DNA of 36,014 bases, from positions 1 through 36,014 of the forward strand of contig VMGG01000002.1 of the NCBI GenBank assembly GCA_007376425.1. Direction: 5' to 3'. The translations under genes and the position numbers were made by a program. Numbering within the stretch: the stretch's first letter is position 1; each line of letters begins with the position of its first letter. The stretch comes from Parcubacteria group bacterium Gr01-1014_2 (GTDB taxonomy: Bacteria > Patescibacteriota > Minisyncoccia > 2-02-FULL-40-12). Under the pieces are notes generated by a model, which searched no databases, was not told where the DNA came from, and saw only the letters and a list, made by a program, of their open reading frames with translations. Of this stretch, positions 1-32,278 are shown in pieces.

Positions 1-80
1 GTCGGCTCGACTTAGCGCGGGGGTGAAGAAGCTCCCAAGCGTTGGACTGTTCGTCCATTAAAAAGTTACGTGAGCTGGGT
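1..80 (+). rRNA. rrl: 23S rRNA exon (domain V, E. coli ~2505-2584), truncated by window start
   Basis: GTCGGCTC...CTGTTCG...GAGCTGGGT matches the conserved peptidyl-transferase-centre sequence. Confidence 0.97.
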
Positions 81-903
81 AAGTTAAAAAGATGAGCCCA
101 GCATAAACTGACTCATAACGGTAGAGTTCATTATGAAAATTTGATAAAATTATAGTAATGGATAATATCGTGGGAAGACTGAAATCTTTAATTCCGTCAG
201 ATCAGTTTCAACTGATCATAGGTTCATTGATGGGTGATGCTCGTTTAGAGTGTCGTTCAAAGAGTATAAGAGCGAAACATACTGCTCGTTTAAGGATTCA
301 TCAATCCGATAAGCAAAAGGATTATGTGTTTTGGAAGTACCAAATATTGAAAAGTCTTGTCATAAGAGGACCCAGATTTACCAAAGTCTGGCATGACAAG
401 AAAAGAAATAAAAATCATTATTCCTGGTATTTTCATACAATAAGTTCGGAAACATTGGGATTGTTTCATAGATTTTTTTATCGGAACGGAATAAAAATTG
501 TACCGATTGAATTGCTAAAGGAATTAAATCCTTTAGGGTTAGCGATTTGGTACATGGATGATGGATCAAATAATGGCGGCAGCATAACTCTTAATACTCA
601 TTGTTTCTCTGAACAAGAACAGATAGTAATTCAAGATTTATTGAAAAATAAGTTTGGAGTTGTTGCTACTATAGTGAAAGACAGAAACAAATTGAAAATT
701 TGAATCGGCTCTCGCGAGTATCAAAAATTTATTGATCTCGTAAGGCCATATATTCCAGAATCAATGAACTATAAGATTTCAAGTCCCCGTAACGACTTGT
801 CGCTAAATCAGCGGCAGGCGGTGGTTATTTAATCGCCGCAACACGTCAGCTCCGGTGTTCGGAAAAATCGGAGAAGGTATAGTCTAATACACAAATAGTA
901 TTG
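81..903 (+). ncRNA. Group I intron in 23S rRNA at L2584, carrying a LAGLIDADG ORF
   Basis: Exon ends in U80 and pairs with internal guide GCCCAGC (P1 with U.G); R-like CCCGTAACGACT ~786-797; S-like GAAGGTATAGTCT ~873-885; terminal G903; rRNA resumes TCAAACCGT. Confidence 0.9.
158..832 (+). pseudogene. Double-motif LAGLIDADG homing endonuclease (LAGLIDADG_2 type) with in-frame TGA at 701-703
   Basis: Motifs IIGSLMGDA and LAIWYMDDGS; the frame continues after TGA as IGSREYQKFIDLVRPYIPESMNYKI, the usual C-terminus of this family, to TAA 830-832. Confidence 0.85.
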
Positions 904-912
904 TCAAACCGT
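904..912 (+). rRNA. rrl: 9-nt 23S rRNA micro-exon (E. coli 2585-2593)
   Basis: TCAAACCGT fills the gap exactly between GAGCTGGGT and CGTGAGACAG. Confidence 0.9.
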
Positions 913-1039
913 CAATTGAGGCGGCTACACCGAGTAATCGGTGTTAGCAAAATCGACTCATATCGGGGAAATCCTACTTAAATACAACCTGTTTAAGAGG
1001 ATAATCCCGAGGGAAGTCAAAAGTTGTAGATTAAGATAG

Positions 1040-1070
1040 AAAAAGCCCTACACATTTTATGTGAAGGGCT
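1040..1070 (-). terminator. Minus-strand intrinsic terminator inside intron L2593
   Basis: AGCCCT-A-CACAT/ATGTG-A-AGGGCT stem next to A5 (U-tract on minus strand). Confidence 0.55.
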
Positions 1071-1129
1071 ACGACCGGGGCATCAGGTGGCCTGAACTGG
1101 CTACCATATAGCTTGCCGTGTCTAAATAC

Positions 1130-1158
1130 ATGTTAGCATGTAGATAATTTTCTGTCAA
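1130..1158 (-). promoter_or_regulatory. Antisense sigma70-type promoter inside intron L2593
   Basis: Minus strand TTGACA-N17-TAACAT with extended TGn. Confidence 0.55.
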
Positions 1159-1319
1159 TAGATTGCTAAAAAAGCTAGAAAAATCAAGCAATTTTGACCC
1201 CGTAGAGACTCAATCTTTTTTAAAGGATTGGACGAAACAAAAAGTTTCGTAACATGTCGGTCTTCCACATTAGTGGAAGGTGGTATAGTCCATACAACGA
1301 GTAATCGTTGAGAAATATG

Positions 1320-1540
1320 CGTGAGACAGGTTGGTCCTTATCTGGTGTGGGCGCAAAAAGACCTGAGTGGGGTCGCTCCTAGTACGAGAGGACCGGAGTG
1401 AGCGTACCTCTGGTGTACCAGTAGTCCTGCCAAGGGCGTCGCTGGGTAGCTAAGTACGTCAGTGATAAGCGCTGAAAGCATCTAAGCGCGAAGTAAGCGG
1501 GGCAACCCGTTTAGCCGAGAACTACTAATAGACCGATTTT
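1320..1540 (+). rRNA. rrl: 23S rRNA 3' exon (from E. coli 2594), apparently missing ~80 nt of domain VI
   Basis: CGTGAGACAG, sarcin-ricin loop AGTACGAGAGGACC, GCTGAAAGCATCTAAG, TACTAAT; 3' end approximate. Confidence 0.92.
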
Positions 1541-1585
1541 ATTCCCGCACTTTATCTGTTTTCAGTAGAATTAAAAACCAGTGAT

Positions 1586-1700
1586 TTGGTGGTAATACCG
1601 GCGTTGCCCCACCCGTTTCCATTCCGAACACGGAAGTGAAAGACGCCAAGGCCGATGATAGTTTCCCGCTAAGCTGGGTGCGAAAGTAGGTCGCCGCCAA
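1586..1700 (+). rRNA. rrf: 5S rRNA
   Basis: CCATTCCGAACACGGAAGTGAA, GCCGATGATAGT, GAAAGTAGGTCGCCGCC; flanked by 14-bp inverted repeat 1571-1584/1702-1715 (processing stem). Confidence 0.95.
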
Positions 1701-1765
1701 TTCACTGGTTTTTAAATTTGGCGATTATTTGCTCTGTCTTTTCTTTTCTTTTATGATGAAGAAAA

Positions 1766-14200: not shown

Positions 14201-14272
14201 AATTCGTATAATTAGTATCCATTAGTATATTAGTATCGATACCAATATACGAATTATACTAATAATACTAAT
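14201..14272. repeat. Inverted arrays of 8-10-mer repeats between ftsK and recA
   Basis: 4x ATT(A/C)GTAT then 4x ATAC(T/G/C)AAT, ending at recA GTG. Confidence 0.8.
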
Positions 14273-15292
14273 GTGATTGTTAAAAAAACCGATTCAAAAA
14301 CTTCAGACCGGGCAAAGCTAGTTGAAACCGCGGTAAAAGAGATTAGAGATAAATACGGCGAAGGGGCGATAATGAAGCTCGGTGAGGCGAGGCGGGTTGA
14401 TGTTGACGTTATTCCGACCGGTTCCATTTCTTTGGATATTGCTCTCGGGGTAATGGGCATGCCTCGGGGAAGAGTTATTGAAATCTACGGACCTGAAAGT
14501 TCTGGAAAGACGACCTTGGCTTTGCATGTTGTGGCTGAAGCCCAGAAGCGGGGAGGGCAAGCAGCTTTTGTTGATGCCGAGCACGCCTTAGATCCGGAGT
14601 ACGCTAAAAAAATCGGAGTCCGAATTGATGACTTATTGATTTCCCAGCCAGATCATGGCGAACAGGCTCTTGAAATAGTAGAGACTTTGATTAAGTCAGG
14701 GACAATGGATGTGATTGTGGTTGATTCAGTGGCGGCCTTGACTCCCAAAGCTGAAATTGAAGGGGATATGGGTCAGCAGCACATTGGGTTGCAAGCTAGG
14801 CTCATGTCTCATGCTCTTCGCAAGCTTACCGCCATAGTCGCTAAATCAAGGACCGTCTTGATTTTTATAAACCAGATTCGTCATCAGATCGGGGTGATGT
14901 TTGGAAACCCCGAAGTTACGCCGGGCGGCAAGGCTCTTAAGTTTTATTCTTCAATAAGAATAGATGTCCGCCGGATTGCCCAAGTCCAGTCAGGAGAAAA
15001 AATTATTGGCGGCCGGCACCGGGCCAAAGTGGTTAAAAACAAAGTTGCCCCGCCCTTCAGGCAGGCTGAATTTGATATTTTGTATAACGAGGGCATTTCC
15101 CGTCTTTCTGATTTGGTTAATTCAGGAGTTAAATACGGAATTTTGGCTCGTTCAGGCGCTTGGTATAATTTTGATAAAATAAAACTTGGGCAAGGTTTGG
15201 AAAGCGCCCGGAGCTTTTTGAAAGACAACGAAAAAATGGCTCAAGAGATTGCAAAAAAAGTGAGAGATTCGGCGTTTAAGGAAGAAGGCTAA
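14273..15292 (+). CDS. recA: Recombinase A
   Basis: [35 protein letters not shown]. Confidence 0.99.
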
Positions 15293-16113: not shown

Positions 16114-16161
16114 GTCCCGACTTTGTCGAGGATCCTCGATTCCGCAAAGCTGAATCGGGAC
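16114..16161. repeat. Compound palindromic (REP-like) element between rpsF and ssb
   Basis: GTCCCGA...TCGAGGATCCTCGA...TCGGGAC; 16126-16161 matches 29651-29686 at 35/36 nt. Confidence 0.8.
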
Positions 16162-19856: not shown

Positions 19857-20660
19857 ATGGAGAATTTATTAAATAAAATCGAAAGGGTTCCTAAGGACAA
19901 AAAACTGATTGTTTTTGATTTGGATGGGACTCTTGTTGAAACTAAATCAAGCCTAGATGATGAAACGGCAGAATTGTTCGGGCAGCTTTTAGCACAAAAG
20001 AAGGTGGCTGTGATCGGCGGGGCAAGTTTTGAACGGTTCAGAAAAGATTTAGTTGATAGATTAAATGTCTCGCCGGAATTACTTGGCAACCTGTTTTTGT
20101 TTCCCACAACGGCCTCTTCTTTTTATAGATACGACAATAAGTGGATACAGGTATATTCAGAGGAATTTTCAAAAGAGCAAAAAGAAAAAATTATGGATGC
20201 CTTTGAAAAAGCGTTTAAAGAAATCGATTACGTGAGGCCTGAGAAAACTTACGGAGAAATCATAGAAGATAGAGGTTCACAAATTACTTTCTCGGCCTTG
20301 GGTCAAGACGTTGTTGCCGAACTCGGCGAAGAGGGGATTAAACTTAAGAAAAAATGGCGGGATGAAAACCAAGGTTTAAAACTTAAACTGGCTGGAATTT
20401 TGCAAAGGTATCTTCCCGAGTTTGAAGTCAGGGCTGCTGGCTATACTTCAATCGACATAACTCGCAAGGGGATTGATAAAGAATACGCGATTAGGCAAAT
20501 CCAGAAGCACCTTGGCGTTTCAATTGAAGATATGCTCTTTGTCGGTGATGCTCTTTTTGAGAGAGGCAATGACAATGCGGTATTAAGAACTGGAATAATG
20601 TGTTTTGAAATTAAAGAAGTGGAAGACACTAAAGAACTTATCAGATATCTTGTTAAGTAG
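19857..20660 (+). CDS. HAD-IIB hydrolase (phosphomannomutase-like)
   Basis: FDLDGTL, IEDRGSQITFSALGQ, GIDK, FVGDALFERGND. Confidence 0.9.
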   Translation: MENLLNKIERVPKDKKLIVFDLDGTLVETKSSLDDETAELFGQLLAQKKVAVIGGASFERFRKDLVDRLNVSPELLGNLFLFPTTASSFYRYDNKWIQVYSEEFSKEQKEKIMDAFEKAFKEIDYVRPEKTYGEIIEDRGSQITFSALGQDVVAELGEEGIKLKKKWRDENQGLKLKLAGILQRYLPEFEVRAAGYTSIDITRKGIDKEYAIRQIQKHLGVSIEDMLFVGDALFERGNDNAVLRTGIMCFEIKEVEDTKELIRYLVK

Positions 20661-20674
20661 ATTAAGTTTGAGTT

Positions 20675-20710
20675 ACTATTAATTATATGCGATCGCTTGA
20701 AATTAATAGT
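20675..20710. repeat. 36-bp palindrome, copy 1
   Basis: ACTATTAATT-ATAT-GCGATCGC-TTGA-AATTAATAGT. Confidence 0.9.
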
Positions 20711-21222
20711 AAAAATAAAAAAGAGCAGATTTTTCATAAGTTAGATTCGGCAACCAGTAAGCTACTCGAAGTAATAGAATTTTTAGTCGGTCTTAATTAC
20801 ATAGCTTTTTCAAAAAAAGCCTAGGAACAAAGTTAAATATGGATCCTTATTGGGAAGGGCAAAGATTATTTGGTGCTTTAGGCAATCTCGAAAAGGGGAG
20901 CTTTATTAAAAAAGTCGGAAGCGGTAGCTACAAGCTTACTAAAAAGGGGATTAAAAGAATAAATTTTTCTAAATTTTTTAGACTCTCTTTAGATAAAAAG
21001 GAAAAAGACGGTTTATGGCGGGTAGTGATTTTTGATATACCGGAAAAGCAGAAAGTTAAAAGAGATTTATTAAGACAAAAGTTAAAAGAGCTTGATTTTA
21101 AAATGATTCAGAAAAGTGTTTTCGTATCTCCGTATATTTGTGAAAAAGAAATCTTGGAGCTTTGTAAGATCTTGGGTTTAAAGAAAGAAGTTTCTATTTT
21201 GACTACTAAAACTATTAATTAA
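20687..21222 (+). CDS. PaaX-like protein (wHTH plus Cas2-like ferredoxin domain), split by a -1 frameshift at an A7 run
   Basis: YKLTKKG wing; DGLWRVVIFDIPEK...LKELDFKMIQKSVFVSPY; upstream frame open from ATG 20687 to TAG 20822-20824, joining at 20812-20818 to give ~178 aa. Confidence 0.75.
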
Positions 21223-21246
21223 AAGCGATCGCTTGAAATTAATAGT
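21211..21246. repeat. 36-bp palindrome, copy 2
   Basis: ACTATTAATT-AAAA-GCGATCGC-TTGA-AATTAATAGT; 34/36 identical to copy 1. Confidence 0.9.
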
Positions 21247-22240
21247 CTATCTTCATTGCCTTTTTGACTAAATTTATTGTTTCTTCGGCGCGGGCCAGGG
21301 TTTTTTGAGTTCCTTCGGTCAGGATATTCATTACTTCTGCTGATTTTTTTTCTAGTCCTTTTCTTTTTTCGCGGACTGGTTCTAAAAATTTAATCAAATC
21401 TTCGGCGAGCTTGCTTTTAAAAGATGTATAATTTACACTTCCCATTTCTTTTGCCGCTTCTTGCGGGGTAATGGAGTGGATGAGGCCGTAGATTAAAAGA
21501 AGATTTGAAATTTCAGGCCTTTTTTTAGGGTCATATGACGCTGTTGAAAAAGAATCGGTCTTGGCGGTTTTTATTTTTTCTTTTATTTCTTCTGGGCTGT
21601 CTTTTAAAAAGATTGCGTTATTTAAACTTTTGCTCATTTTGGCATTACCGTCCAAACCCATAATCCGCGGCGCTTGTGATAACTTTGCTTGAGGAAGAGG
21701 GAAAATTTGAGTTTTATAGATACGATGAAATTTCTCTGCTATTTCTCTAGTTAGTTCTATCATCGGTAACTGATCTTGGCCTACCGGTACAACATCAGCT
21801 CTTACGATTGTAATATCAGCGGCCTGACTTACTGGATAGCCAAGAAAACCATAAGTCAGCTTTTCACCTTTGGCCCCGAATAAATCTTTTTTCTCGGTAA
21901 TCTCGTCTTTCACCGTCGGATTTCTTTTGAGCGTGTTAATGGTAACTAAATTGGAAAAAAATACTGTCAGCTCGGCAATTTGAGGTATTTTACTTTGAAT
22001 AAAAAAGGTTGTTTTTTGAGGGTCAAGACCGAAGGCAAGATAGTCGAGAGCGACTTCCATAACATTATCGCGAACCTTCTCCGGTTCTTTAAAGTGATCA
22101 GTAAGCGCTTGAACATCGGCAATCATTACAAATGATTCGTATTCATTTTCCAATTCTTTTCTCGAAACAAGCGAACCAAAATAGTGGCCGATATGAAGCG
22201 GTCCGGTTGGGCGGTCGCCAGTTAGAGATACTTTTTTCAT
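21239..22240 (-). CDS. trpS: Tryptophanyl-tRNA synthetase
   Basis: TGDRPTGPLHIGH, YPVSQAADI, VPVGQDQ, KMSKS. Confidence 0.97.
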   Translation of the reverse strand: MKKVSLTGDRPTGPLHIGHYFGSLVSRKELENEYESFVMIADVQALTDHFKEPEKVRDNVMEVALDYLAFGLDPQKTTFFIQSKIPQIAELTVFFSNLVTINTLKRNPTVKDEITEKKDLFGAKGEKLTYGFLGYPVSQAADITIVRADVVPVGQDQLPMIELTREIAEKFHRIYKTQIFPLPQAKLSQAPRIMGLDGNAKMSKSLNNAIFLKDSPEEIKEKIKTAKTDSFSTASYDPKKRPEISNLLLIYGLIHSITPQEAAKEMGSVNYTSFKSKLAEDLIKFLEPVREKRKGLEKKSAEVMNILTEGTQKTLARAEETINLVKKAMKIDY

Positions 22241-22251
22241 TTTTAACCGTA

Positions 22252-22287
22252 ACTATTAGTTAAAAGCGGTCGCTTTTAACTAATAGT
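22252..22287. repeat. 36-bp palindrome, copy 3
   Basis: ACTATTAGTT-AAAA-GCGGTCGC-TTTT-AACTAATAGT; compensatory arm change. Confidence 0.85.
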
Positions 22288-22294
22288 TACTAGT

Positions 22295-24115
22295 TTATAC
22301 TTCTATAACAACTGGTAAGACCATTGGTCTTCGTTCCGTCTTCTGGAACAAGAACGAGCCGATTTTTTCTTTGATTTCGTCTTTCAAATAGATCCAATTT
22401 ATTGGGCCGCGGCCAGCAGTTTTTCTTTCAACAATGGCCCTGACTCTTTTTCTAACTTCGCCTAAAAGTTCGGTGTTTTCGCGCAAATAGACAAAGCCGC
22501 GGGAGATGATGTCGGGGCTGGTGCGGACTCGGCCAGTCCTTGAGTCAATGGTCGTGACGATGACAAACATTCCGTCTTGGGCTAGAACTTGGCGGTCGCG
22601 CAAGACCACGTTGCCGATGTCGCCGATGCCCAAGCCGTCAACAAAGACATATTGGATTGGAACTTTTTCTTCAGAAACACGAAAGCCCTGCCGGTTCAAA
22701 ACGCCGACGCTGCCGTTATCAAGGATGAATATGTTTTGTTTGGGGAAGCCGTCGGATTGGGCCACTTTGGCTCCTTCGCAAAGCAGATAGTGGTTGGCGT
22801 AAACCGGCAAAAGATATTTTGGTTTGACCTGTCTGATTAAAAGCTTAATGTCTTCCATTAAAGCGTGGCCGCCCGAGTGCACGTCCATAATTTCTTTATG
22901 GATGACGTTGGCGCCCTGCCGATAAAGGTTGTCTTTTAGGCGCTGGATAGTTCGCTCGTTGCCTGGAATGACTGATGAAGAAAAAATAATCGTATCTGAT
23001 TTTTCTACCCTGATTTGGCGGTGGTCCCCGTTGGCAATGCGCATTAAAGCCGCCCGGTCTTCGCCTTGGGCGCCGGTAACGATAGCAATGATCTTATTAG
23101 GCGGGTAGTCGTGGATATTCTTAATGTCAATCATGACATTTGGGTTAAACTTCAGGTAGCCGATCTTTTTCGCGATCTCAATGTTCATTTTCATTGAATA
23201 GCCGTCAAGGGCCACTTTTTTGCCAAGCCCTTCGGCAATACTGATTATTTGGGATACCCGTTCAACCATTGAAGAGAAGGTGGCGATAATGATGCGGGCC
23301 GGCGCGTTTTCTATTATTTTTTTGATGTTTTTGTAGACTTCCGATTCGGATAACTGGCTTCCTTCCTTAGTCGAACCCAGCGATTCCATCATTAAGATTG
23401 ATGGTTTTTCTTGGGTGTTCCAGCGGGACAGATGCGAAAAGTCGGTCGGTTTGCCGTTAACCGGACTCGTATCATAACGCCAATCTCCGGGATGGATAAT
23501 ATTGCCTTGCGGCGTCTGCAAAATTACTCCCAAGGCATCCATGATGCTGTGAGTTACTTCAAAGAGGGCTACTTTGAAATAATCGCCCAAAGCGAATTCT
23601 TCGTCAGCCGAATTAATTTCGTGGGCCACCAGATACTGGGCCAGATTTGATTCTTCAAGTCGCCGGCGAAGCAAGAATAAAGTCAGGCGGCTGGCATAGA
23701 CTGTAGGCCAGCCGAGTTTGGGCAGGATATGCGGGGCAGCGCCGATGTGGTCAAGATGGCCGTGAGAAAGGATCACGCCGCGGATATTTTTTTCTTTTCC
23801 CTCCAGATAGCGGATGTCGGGAATTATATAGTCAATCCCTGGCATATCCTCTTCTGGAAACTGAAGGCCCATGTCCAAAATGACGATGTCGTCTTTGTAT
23901 TCAAAAACGGTCATATTCCGGCCGACTTCTTCCTGCCCTCCCAACGGAATAATCCTGAGTTCGTCGGTTTTCGGCTCAGTCTTTTTTAGACCAACAAAAA
24001 TCCGCCCTTTTTCTTTTTCAGGTTTAAAAATTTTTCTTCTGCTTGTTTTAGTTGTTCTATGACTTCGCAGCGGACCATCGGTTGCTGCAATGTTTGTGAG
24101 TCTTCTTCTCATCAT
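22295..24115 (-). CDS. rnj: Ribonuclease J
   Basis: IIPLGGQEEVGRNM, SHGHLDHIG, VHSGGHA, TERRPMVLPV. Confidence 0.97.
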   Translation of the reverse strand: MMRRRLTNIAATDGPLRSHRTTKTSRRKIFKPEKEKGRIFVGLKKTEPKTDELRIIPLGGQEEVGRNMTVFEYKDDIVILDMGLQFPEEDMPGIDYIIPDIRYLEGKEKNIRGVILSHGHLDHIGAAPHILPKLGWPTVYASRLTLFLLRRRLEESNLAQYLVAHEINSADEEFALGDYFKVALFEVTHSIMDALGVILQTPQGNIIHPGDWRYDTSPVNGKPTDFSHLSRWNTQEKPSILMMESLGSTKEGSQLSESEVYKNIKKIIENAPARIIIATFSSMVERVSQIISIAEGLGKKVALDGYSMKMNIEIAKKIGYLKFNPNVMIDIKNIHDYPPNKIIAIVTGAQGEDRAALMRIANGDHRQIRVEKSDTIIFSSSVIPGNERTIQRLKDNLYRQGANVIHKEIMDVHSGGHALMEDIKLLIRQVKPKYLLPVYANHYLLCEGAKVAQSDGFPKQNIFILDNGSVGVLNRQGFRVSEEKVPIQYVFVDGLGIGDIGNVVLRDRQVLAQDGMFVIVTTIDSRTGRVRTSPDIISRGFVYLRENTELLGEVRKRVRAIVERKTAGRGPINWIYLKDEIKEKIGSFLFQKTERRPMVLPVVIEV

Positions 24116-29018: not shown

Positions 29019-30002
29019 ATGAATAAAGGCATTTTGAAAACCATTGTTTATTATGATTGCTTGGATTATCCGTTGACGGGCGAAGAATTGAAAATTTTTG
29101 CGTTTAAGAATAGCCATGATTTGAAAGACAACGATTTAATCGAAATAGTAGAAGGTTTTCATTTCTTGAAAGGGAGGAGTGATTTAATAAGGATAAGGGA
29201 AAAAAGAAAAGAATTATCCAAAACGAAATGGGAAAAAACTCTTAAAGCAGTCAAATGGCTTGGGGTGATTCCTTATATCAAATTGATTTTCGCATCGGGC
29301 TCCCTGGCTTTGAGCAACACCGATAAAGAAAGCGACTTGGATGTTTTGATTGTGGCAAAGCACGGCCGGATTTGGCTGGCGAGATTTTTAGCCGCATTGT
29401 TACTTGGGTTATTAGGATTAAGGCGAAAAAGACACCAGCGAGTTGCGCCTGATAAAATCTGCTTCAATCATTTCATAACCGATAAATCTTTATATATTCC
29501 TCGAAAAAGCATTTACACGGCCCAGCTTTATGCGCGATTAGTTCCCATCTTGGTTAGCGATGAAAAGCTGATTAACGATTTTTGTGAGGCAAATTCGTGG
29601 ATTAAAGAATATATTCCTAAATTCCAAATTCTCCCGATTCGCAGAGCGAATCGAGGATCCTCGATTCCGCAAAGCGGAATCGGGACAAATTCCAAATTCT
29701 TAAAATTTATAAAAAATATCAGCGAAAAAATTCTGGATACAAAATTAGGCGACTGGCTGGAAAGTGTTTTGCGAAAATATCAGCTCCGGCGGATAAATAG
29801 CTATCATTTAACCCATAAAGTGAGCGGGACGCTAAGCGTCCCAAATAGCCACGCTAAGCGTGGCGGCCGGGTTAAGGCTGATGATGAGAGTTTGGAGTTC
29901 CATCCTGATTCTCCGGAGCTGAAAATTCTTGAAAATTATAATAAAAAAATGATAGAATTAGGATTCGAGGACTTGACAGAAGAGACCTCTTTCGATAAAT
30001 AG
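29019..30002 (+). CDS. Pol-beta-like nucleotidyltransferase domain protein
   Basis: IFASGSLALSNTDKESDLDVLIV (GS...DxD). Confidence 0.8.
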   Translation: MNKGILKTIVYYDCLDYPLTGEELKIFAFKNSHDLKDNDLIEIVEGFHFLKGRSDLIRIREKRKELSKTKWEKTLKAVKWLGVIPYIKLIFASGSLALSNTDKESDLDVLIVAKHGRIWLARFLAALLLGLLGLRRKRHQRVAPDKICFNHFITDKSLYIPRKSIYTAQLYARLVPILVSDEKLINDFCEANSWIKEYIPKFQILPIRRANRGSSIPQSGIGTNSKFLKFIKNISEKILDTKLGDWLESVLRKYQLRRINSYHLTHKVSGTLSVPNSHAKRGGRVKADDESLEFHPDSPELKILENYNKKMIELGFEDLTEETSFDK

Positions 30003-32027: not shown

Positions 32028-32278
32028 AAAGCCTCTCGCCCCCACACTCATATATGAGTGTGGGGGCTCGGGTACAGCCATTTCGGAGAGCGCCGCCACG
32101 GGAACATCCAGCTCGCTCATTCTCGGCTGCTCCAGCGGCAGCCTCCGAGGGCGTCGGCCGTTTTGTCCCGCTTCGCGGGAACCAAGCCAAAACGGCCTCC
32201 GAATCCGCTCACTGGACATTCCCGTGGCGGCTTACCATTTCTTCTATTTCAGAAAATGGCTATACCCTGCGGGCTTTC
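32028..32278. repeat. ~250-bp GC-rich nested foldback element
   Basis: GGGTACAGCCATTT/AAATGGCTATACCC, GCCGCCACGGGAA/TTCCCGTGGCGGC, GGCCGTTTTG/CAAAACGGCC, perfect CCCCCACACTCAT hairpin. Confidence 0.75.

Follow-up and report, generated by a model that had tools for sequence, protein, structure and literature searches.

In REP/RAYT systems, a single-copy gene is flanked by cognate short palindromes, further copies of which are dispersed at gene boundaries, and in REPIN-RAYT systems each gene lineage has its own repeat family and is largely inherited vertically (PMC2817692; PMC3116915; PMC3337134; bioRxiv 10.1101/2022.05.22.493013). The REPs often exceed 100 copies per genome (PMC2817692). Here, we describe a locus of Parcubacteria group bacterium Gr01-1014_2 (assembly GCA_007376425.1), located in a 36,014-nucleotide stretch of contig VMGG01000002.1 (positions 1 to 36,014 of the forward strand, hereafter the window), in which a gene encoding a winged helix followed by a Cas2-like (PaaX_M) domain lies between two copies of a 36-bp palindrome. 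Like the RAYT genes, it is a single gene between its own cognate palindromes, with additional copies dispersed elsewhere. Unlike them, its product combines a winged helix with a Cas2-like domain and is not an HUH/Y1 (IS200-like) transposase; each palindrome family has 2–6 copies per genome rather than tens to hundreds; and the repeats lie against or across the start and stop codons.

PaaX is a repressor of phenylacetate catabolism that binds palindromic operators. The E. coli protein (8a39) and its relative Rv0674 (3kfw) also consist of a winged helix followed by a Cas2-like central domain (PF20803), but the protein described here has no PaaX_C, has no paa genes nearby and is ∼180 residues long rather than roughly 300. 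The CRISPR repeat is duplicated at spacer integration, and the locus recalls this duplication in that an insert lies between two direct copies of a partly palindromic ∼36-bp repeat; moreover, the C-terminal domain passes the Pfam and NCBIfam cut-offs for Cas2 and retains the first-strand Asp. The differences are that the 'insert' is the gene itself (500–700 bp), that the domain is fused to a DNA-binding domain, and that neither Cas1 nor an array accompanies it. A first-pass annotation, made from the letters of the window, had remarked on the absence of cas1, of a CRISPR array and of an integrase, and this holds: Cas1 (PF01867) has no match anywhere in the genome (90% complete); none of the repeats in the window is CRISPR-like, although no dedicated genome-wide array search was made; and the sole tyrosine recombinase match of the genome is on another contig, C28. 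Integron attC and pdif-Xer systems likewise comprise single genes bounded by imperfect palindromic sites, with both empty and occupied sites, but there a single recombinase acts on every cassette and the sites have a common core, whereas here the site is private to each cassette and no integrase is linked. Finally, the Rickettsia palindromic elements and other palindromes inserted into coding sequences have a parallel in an in-frame palindrome insert of ∼11 codons in a PMT-family gene (see below), which differs in being a single case and a 36-bp element. No description of a two-palindrome bracket as a feature of PaaX was found in the literature searched, and a search of full-text literature, judged from titles and abstract openings, returned none of a winged helix-turn-helix (wHTH)–Cas2-like gene with a private palindrome bracket.

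The window contains three copies of the palindrome, which we designate family A. Copy 1 (20675..20710; ACTATTAATTATATGCGATCGCTTGAAATTAATAGT, with the core GCGATCGC) contains the ATG of the gene at 20687. Copy 2 (21211..21246), identical to copy 1 at 34 of 36 positions, holds the TAA of the gene (21220–21222) in its left arm and the stop codon of the convergent trpS gene in its right arm. Copy 3 (22252..22287; centre GCGGTCGC) is 81% identical to copy 1, has 20-nt arms that are 100% complementary and lies between rnj and trpS, 7 nt past the rnj stop and 11 nt upstream of the trpS ATG (trpS start 22240). Its A8>G and T29>C changes fall at paired positions. The first-pass annotation had reported the three 36-bp copies, the codons within copies 1 and 2, and the compensatory arm change in copy 3; every detail checked was correct, and the change is indeed a paired one. 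With copy 2 as the query and up to three mismatches allowed, copies 1 and 2 were recovered from the window, and matches appeared in 0 of 100 dinucleotide-preserving shuffles. A chance origin of the palindromes is rejected on the basis of this test, together with the rarity of such flanks among open frames and the cross-genome controls given below. Copy 1 is identical in a metagenome relative (L137), copy 3 is retained at the same position in a related genome (G002), and family A has three further occurrences elsewhere in the genome under study (G000; 545 kb in 37 contigs).

A second PaaX_M gene in G000 (contig C35; 195 residues, intact) lies between two copies of another palindrome, of 40 bp and with the core CACGTG (family B); one copy contains the ATG of the gene and the other its TAA. 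The generality of this bracket was assessed with a flank test, in which the best ungapped match between the start and stop regions of a gene, in either orientation, is scored +1 per match and −2 per mismatch. The loci tested were the best-scoring matches among those listed (at the order level, 31 of the 43 listed places). A flank score of at least 15 was obtained at 21 of these 31 loci, compared with 7 of 914 cross-genome control pairs, and at the phylum level at 18 of 28 further loci, compared with 8 of 756 control pairs; because some of the loci are orthologous, these counts are not independent. About 1% of the mismatched controls reach the threshold. Within G000, only 5 of 474 open frames of at least 100 codons score 18 or higher, and these are the two PaaX_M genes, trpS (which lies between copies 2 and 3), a Trp-repressor-family gene and a repetitive open reading frame (ORF). 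In genome G105, a private pair is present at all six family genes, and four of the pairs are 100% identical over 35–41 nt. In G289, the gene was located by its motif in seven of 12 regions, and three of these seven score at least 15. A census of the complete genome G063 yielded 40 palindromes, 10 of which have a CGGCCG-type core; seven of these abut the five PaaX_M genes and three are solo. The first-pass annotation had suggested looking for family-specific flanking palindromes around homologs, and these prove to be the rule in the family, with private pairs at both the order and the phylum level. The recurrence of this bracketed layout across a phylum of bacteria with tiny genomes, with a different palindrome each time, points to an undescribed unit of protein and site.

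Two further loci bear on the bracket. At G063:9051–9397 (L089), an 87-residue ORF corresponding to the Cas2-like part alone overlaps the end of an ORF that we take to be cysS-like, and of the palindromes only the downstream one is left; the short ORF looks like a decayed cassette. The Trp-repressor-family gene of G000 (C33:19085–19600; L054:786–1300) encodes 145 residues (PF01371, 1.9e-18) and is bracketed by its own palindrome pair, in which 13-nt arms surround ATGA and which contains TATAAT; the downstream copy precedes the next gene. Since this gene has the same bracket, the layout is not confined to PaaX_M genes, which fits a property of DNA binders generally and not of Cas2-like proteins specifically.

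Each palindrome is private to its gene. In eight genomes with two cassettes each, the flanks of the same cassette score 13–42 in 14 of 16 comparisons, and flanks compared across cassettes score 7–12 in 16 of 16. In a survey of 41 related genomes, the family B pattern was confined to G000 (four copies), G006 (four) and G007 (three), which are exactly the carriers of a B-type gene; the family A pattern occurs only in the carriers of an A-type gene, G000 (six copies) and G002 (four), and as one decayed relic in G007. The palindrome is therefore not scattered independently of the gene family, as the first-pass annotation had allowed it might be, since outside genomes with the cognate gene only that relic was found. 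Nor are the homologs stably syntenic without repeats, its other proviso: syntenic homologs retain flanking repeats. At the HAD / gene / trpS locus, G002 has all three palindromes in place, while in G014 the palindrome has diverged to a CGTACG core. That the same gene order carries different palindromes in these two genomes implies that protein and sites change together in place. As a separate observation, CATATG replaces the CACGTG of the other genomes in three of the four family B copies of G006 (contigs C2 and C5), a change expected either if a methylated central CpG had been deaminated on both strands or if the specificity had shifted.

The same data bear on whether the palindromes need a protein at all, as they would not if they were ordinary terminators, insulators or repeats of the restriction-site type, found beside these genes by coincidence and homogenised by gene conversion. 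The cores do resemble restriction sites, and G000 has other palindrome families that are tied to no gene (ATCGAT-core, GGATCC-core and a G+C-rich stem). However, every gene has a palindrome of its own, few other genes have flanking pairs (see the 5 of 474 frames above), each family is confined to genomes with the cognate gene, one relic apart, and most copies are not followed by a T run. We therefore regard elements independent of the protein as very improbable.

The C-terminal frame of the gene matches PaaX_M (PF20803; 3.3e-20, 72.4 bits against a cut-off of 24), CRISPR_Cas2 (PF09827; 2.6e-07, 31.2 bits against 23.8) and the Cas2 model TIGR01573 (26.2 bits against 24.5), and falls below the cut-off of the PaaX equivalog TIGR02277 (22.8 bits against 264.55). 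PaaX_C has no match in the gene product at E ≤ 0.01, and paa genes are found neither beside the locus (HAD hydrolase, trpS, rnj) nor among the neighbours of 59 homologs. Judged from its sequence, by the score under the cut-off and the absence of PaaX_C, the protein is not PaaX proper. It is also not a CRISPR Cas2, as judged by its context (no Cas1 in the genome, no array among the window repeats). Members of the family are proteins of ∼170–200 residues with an N-terminal MarR/PadR-like winged helix and a C-terminal Cas2-like (PaaX_M) domain. An AlphaFold model of the ortholog from G002 has a mean predicted local distance difference test score (pLDDT) of 86, and its residues 10–102 superpose on the winged helices of MarR, MepR and PadR with Z ∼11 and a root-mean-square deviation of 1.5–2.5 Å over 72–82 residues. 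The best Foldseek match is the PaaX relative Rv0674 (3kfw), with E. coli PaaX (8a39) and Cas2 (5zyf) ranking lower, all with weak E-values; by sequence, the solved relatives are Cas2 proteins only, aligned over the FD...QKSV stretch. The link to a Cas2/VapD-like fold drawn in the first-pass annotation thus stands at the level of hidden Markov model matches and not beyond it.

In an alignment of 30 homologs, the Asp of WD(G), an Arg, the Asp of FD(I/V)P, and the Gln and Ser of QxS are invariant; the FD(I/V)P Asp (30 of 30) aligns with the FD motif of Cas2, at the end of strand 1. A profile search returned 5058 cluster representatives at E ≤ 1e-10. Of 301 genomes sampled from the phylum, 75 contain the family, in as many as 12 copies each. 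Related clusters, from phyla of the Candidate Phyla Radiation (CPR), are labelled 'PaaX-like central Cas2-like domain' or 'putative Cas2' in the Atlas. PADLOC gave only weak Cas2 matches and two weak LmuC matches, and indicated no defence system.

Across twelve family A copies, 91% of the arm cells are complementary. Both-sided changes occur in 15 cells, versus 7.3 ± 1.8 in shuffles, and the covariation score is 0.219, versus 0.122 (0 of 500 shuffles as high in either case), although related sequences can exceed shuffles without any structure. At pair 8–29, six copies have G-C and five have A-T; both states are present within one genome, almost always symmetrically. The symmetry extends through the exact centre of the site (CGATCG, CACGTG, CGGCCG), as would suit a dimer bound to duplex DNA or, alternatively, a cruciform or hairpin formed by the DNA.

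A unit acting at the RNA level would instead form hairpins in the transcript, bound or cut by the Cas2-like (ferredoxin-fold, RNase-related) domain, and, much like Cas6 acting on CRISPR repeats, would release from the host operon, or stabilise, a monocistronic mRNA. In keeping with this idea, 18 of 21 cassettes have the same orientation as the gene upstream, and the intervening gaps leave no room for a promoter of their own; the arms stay paired through compensatory changes, and copy 3 is detected by a terminator-like scan. The sense-strand arm mismatches, however, comprise 19 G-T and 21 A-C; in the absence of a G-T excess, the symmetry is not that of a sense-strand RNA hairpin, which is rejected for this lack of wobble bias. 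In addition, the N-terminal domain is a DNA-binding winged helix of the MarR/PadR type, symmetry through the very centre is needless for a hairpin loop, the inner spacer triplets of family B are often non-complementary, and Rfam has no family at the palindromes. Taken together, we consider an RNA-level unit quite improbable.

From the specificity, co-occurrence and co-evolution of gene and palindrome and from the DNA-binding fold, it is highly probable that each protein recognises its own palindrome. To the observed architecture, its specificity and generality, the co-occurrence and the domain folds, we infer the addition of binding, dimerisation and repression, as follows. A symmetric protein dimer would recognise one private palindrome of 36–46 bp. 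With one copy overlapping or abutting its own start codon and the second its stop, the protein would bracket and repress its own gene. The few further copies at gene boundaries would constitute a very small regulon or a set of roadblocks, which in G000 may comprise the sites upstream of trpS, at the start of the M23 peptidase gene after gltX, and between pth and dprA. Each paralog would have come by its own palindrome through co-evolution of protein and sites in place. The sequence data make an evenly balanced case for this fuller proposal of a sequence-specific binder that regulates itself through cognate palindromes, a self-bracketing repressor with a tiny regulon.

The geometry of the cassettes can be compared with this proposal. 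In a set of 39 flanked genes, the first in-frame ATG lies a median of 14 nt past the upstream repeat (interquartile range 2.5 to 28.5), and the downstream repeat starts a median of 17 nt past the stop (interquartile range −0.5 to 24.5); the spacing between the flanking copies is 503–768 nt. A DNA-binding domain and a dyad site over its own start, as in an autoregulated repressor, are both present, in the form of the winged helix and the ATG in or near the upstream palindrome. Family B palindromes contain a promoter-like TTGACT-16-GATAAT (10 of 12 matches), with the ATG 7 nt past the −10 box; the same type of scan found no promoter-like hexamers in family A palindromes. Self-repression is favoured over the alternatives because of the winged helix, the sites over starts and promoters, the low copy number, the stable synteny and the bracket around the Trp-repressor-like gene.

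Several observations weigh against self-repression. About a third of the family members have no flanking pair in the flank test. The downstream neighbour is convergent at 8 of 21 loci, so that there the 3′ copy cannot be its promoter, and simple repression would not require another site at the 3′ end of the gene. At several loci, the flank pairs are 100% identical over 35–46 nt, symmetry-breaking positions included, around paralogs that are 40–74% identical, and such perfect identity is not predicted by selection for binding alone. The coexisting states of pair 8–29 hint at a hairpin or cruciform constraint, or at copying. The sequence conservation of the Asp, Arg, Gln and Ser of the Cas2-like domain suggests a role beyond dimerisation. 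Lastly, one palindrome lies in frame within a PMT-family glycosyltransferase gene of G000 as an insert of ∼11 codons, which is also present in G007 (decayed) and G004 (in a related form) and absent from G001 and G002.

This insert is one of the extra solo copies, of which each palindrome family has 1–4 at other gene boundaries, with one copy, that in the PMT-family gene, inside a coding sequence. The other extra family A copies of G000 lie at the start of the M23 peptidase gene directly after gltX, a copy that is missing from the matching junction of G002, and across the pth stop, just before dprA. Whole cassettes vary as well. At the dnaE–thrS junction, G000 and G006 have a full cassette and G007 has a single palindrome and no gene, an empty site of the kind that the first-pass annotation had proposed seeking in relatives. 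The closest homolog in G007, at 79% nucleotide identity (the level of flanking housekeeping genes), is located with two palindromes between a helicase gene and rsmA, which abut in G000 without an intervening palindrome. In G161, of the same genus as G063, the matching site lacks one G063 cassette together with its palindromes; this cassette is present in G181, of another genus. These cases show turnover and at least one change of place, and each could also be explained by differential loss.

Such gains and losses are what would be expected of a selfish or domesticated unit resembling REP/RAYT, in which the protein binds and nicks the palindrome or directs recombination, and the cassette excises, re-inserts at a solo palindrome or at a new site, and seeds solo copies, the process keeping the flanking copies identical. 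The presence and absence of cassettes at dnaE–thrS, the relocation in G007, the cassette missing from G161, and the solo copies that come and go (that beside gltX and the PMT-gene insert) are all in its favour, as is the homogenisation of the flank pairs, which are perfectly identical in both direct and inverted orientation. The right half of copy 2 in the window matches copy 1 and not its ortholog in L137, as expected from gene conversion. The Asp at the catalytic position of Cas2 is invariant, a site stands at the 3′ end of the gene even next to convergent genes, and the cassettes, up to 12 in one genome, lie between unrelated housekeeping genes, one of them inside the conserved KH–trmD operon. 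Conversely, the copy number is low (2–6 palindromes per family per genome), and only PaaX_M and Cas2 matches were found in the protein, with no transposase, HUH or integrase domain. No near-identical paralogs were found, the closest pair (in G105 and G289) being 74% identical, and the window locus is fixed in place across genera, with the HAD / PaaX-like / trpS order kept in G002 and G014. No deletion, excision or circle joints were found at the locus in the contigs of four runs, although contigs drop rare variants and so cannot show rare forms, and every case of gain or loss is explicable by differential loss through recombination between repeats. On this evidence, a unit of the REP/RAYT kind is a tentative possibility and the chief competitor of self-repression. 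A more specific form of it, in which a Cas2-domain protein without Cas1 pairs, nicks or recombines a private repeat of ∼36–46 bp, so that the gene rides between copies and seeds solos, is unlikely. The first-pass annotation had envisaged a minimal mobile or self-regulating unit whose wHTH–Cas2-like protein recognises the palindrome; such a unit, which may be either mobile or self-regulating, is supported by its private flanks and by the empty site.

The G000 gene itself is interrupted. Its N-terminal piece (20687..20824, + strand) runs for 45 codons to a premature TAG and aligns with residues 1–45 of the ortholog from G002. The frame that encodes the end of the winged helix and the Cas2-like PaaX_M domain (20797..21222, + strand), identified by its Pfam and NCBIfam matches, ends at the TAA within copy 2. 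The two are offset at a run of seven A residues (20812..20818, + strand), which has one base fewer than the intact relatives in an alignment with L137 and G002; the gene is intact in both of these close relatives, as a 179-residue ortholog in G002. The run occurs without an insertion or deletion in contigs of three sequencing runs of a single study, possibly including that of the source sample. An assembly error is rejected on this agreement and on the extra base in the relatives. Programmed −1 frameshifting or transcriptional slippage at A_AAA_AAA is unlikely, since no A run occupies this position in the intact relatives. We read the frameshift as a mutation, a recent inactivating deletion of one base by which the G000 member has lost its protein while its sites are still intact.

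Upstream of the cassette lies a gene for a HAD-family hydrolase (19857..20660, + strand; Pfam match). Downstream are trpS, which encodes a class I Trp/Tyr tRNA synthetase (21239..22240, − strand; Pfam tRNA-synt_1b, 1.2e-61) and is bracketed by copies 2 and 3, and rnj, encoding RNase J (22295..24115, − strand; Pfam RNase J domains). An enrichment of aminoacyl-tRNA synthetase genes beside cassettes was considered, but with 7 of 115 neighbour proteins, and several of the loci orthologous, it is too weak to claim.

Several other features were observed. On contig C35 of G000 (L002:1792–2114), with matches in G001, G006 and G007, a non-coding stretch of ∼320 nt extends from the downstream family B palindrome to thrS and holds a 35-nt segment that recurs elsewhere in the relatives (91–94% matches). 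No Rfam family was found in this stretch, which may be an unrecognised leader. In the window, a copy of the ATCGAT-core repeat family (14220–14255), part of a composite of ATTAGTAT-like units, lies just upstream of an ORF (14273..15292) that is presumably recA-like. The family also occurs on five other contigs, with six copies in the genome, all intergenic, and no linked gene was found for it. The G+C-rich stem palindrome, CCCCCACACTCAT(GC/AT)ATGAGTGTGGGGG, is located at 32035–32070 and at seven other places in the genome (∼8 occurrences), and looks like a shared terminator or another repeat family. At the beginning of the window (1–1702), the 3′ part of the 23S rRNA matches in two pieces (1–109 and 1363–1514) that are ∼1.25 kb apart, followed by 5S rRNA (1585–1702); the split match suggests an insertion within the 23S gene. 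Between 10748 and 11953, inverted repeats with 92-nt arms (88% complementary) stand 777 nt apart and are nested in 51-nt arms (90%), and this ∼1.2-kb segment may be a mobile element or an invertible segment. A 36-nt direct repeat of 97% identity occurs at 16126–16161 and 29651–29686, 13.5 kb apart.

For annotation, the genes of this family should be named neither Cas2 nor PaaX. If a Cas1-less protein of the family did pair, nick or recombine its private repeat, it would represent a new class of repeat–protein symbiont, the CPR counterpart of the proteobacterial REPIN-RAYT niche, and could be a living relative of the module of repeat and Cas2 from which CRISPR adaptation arose. Should the Cas2-like domain prove active on the repeats, they would form a new mobile or domesticated repeat system with a bearing on the origins of Cas2 and of the CRISPR repeat. 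The rule offered here, that each gene lies between two copies of its own palindrome, provides dozens of natural protein–site pairs for the study of how winged-helix specificity evolves, and is likely to open a way into gene regulation in CPR bacteria, for which few regulators are known.

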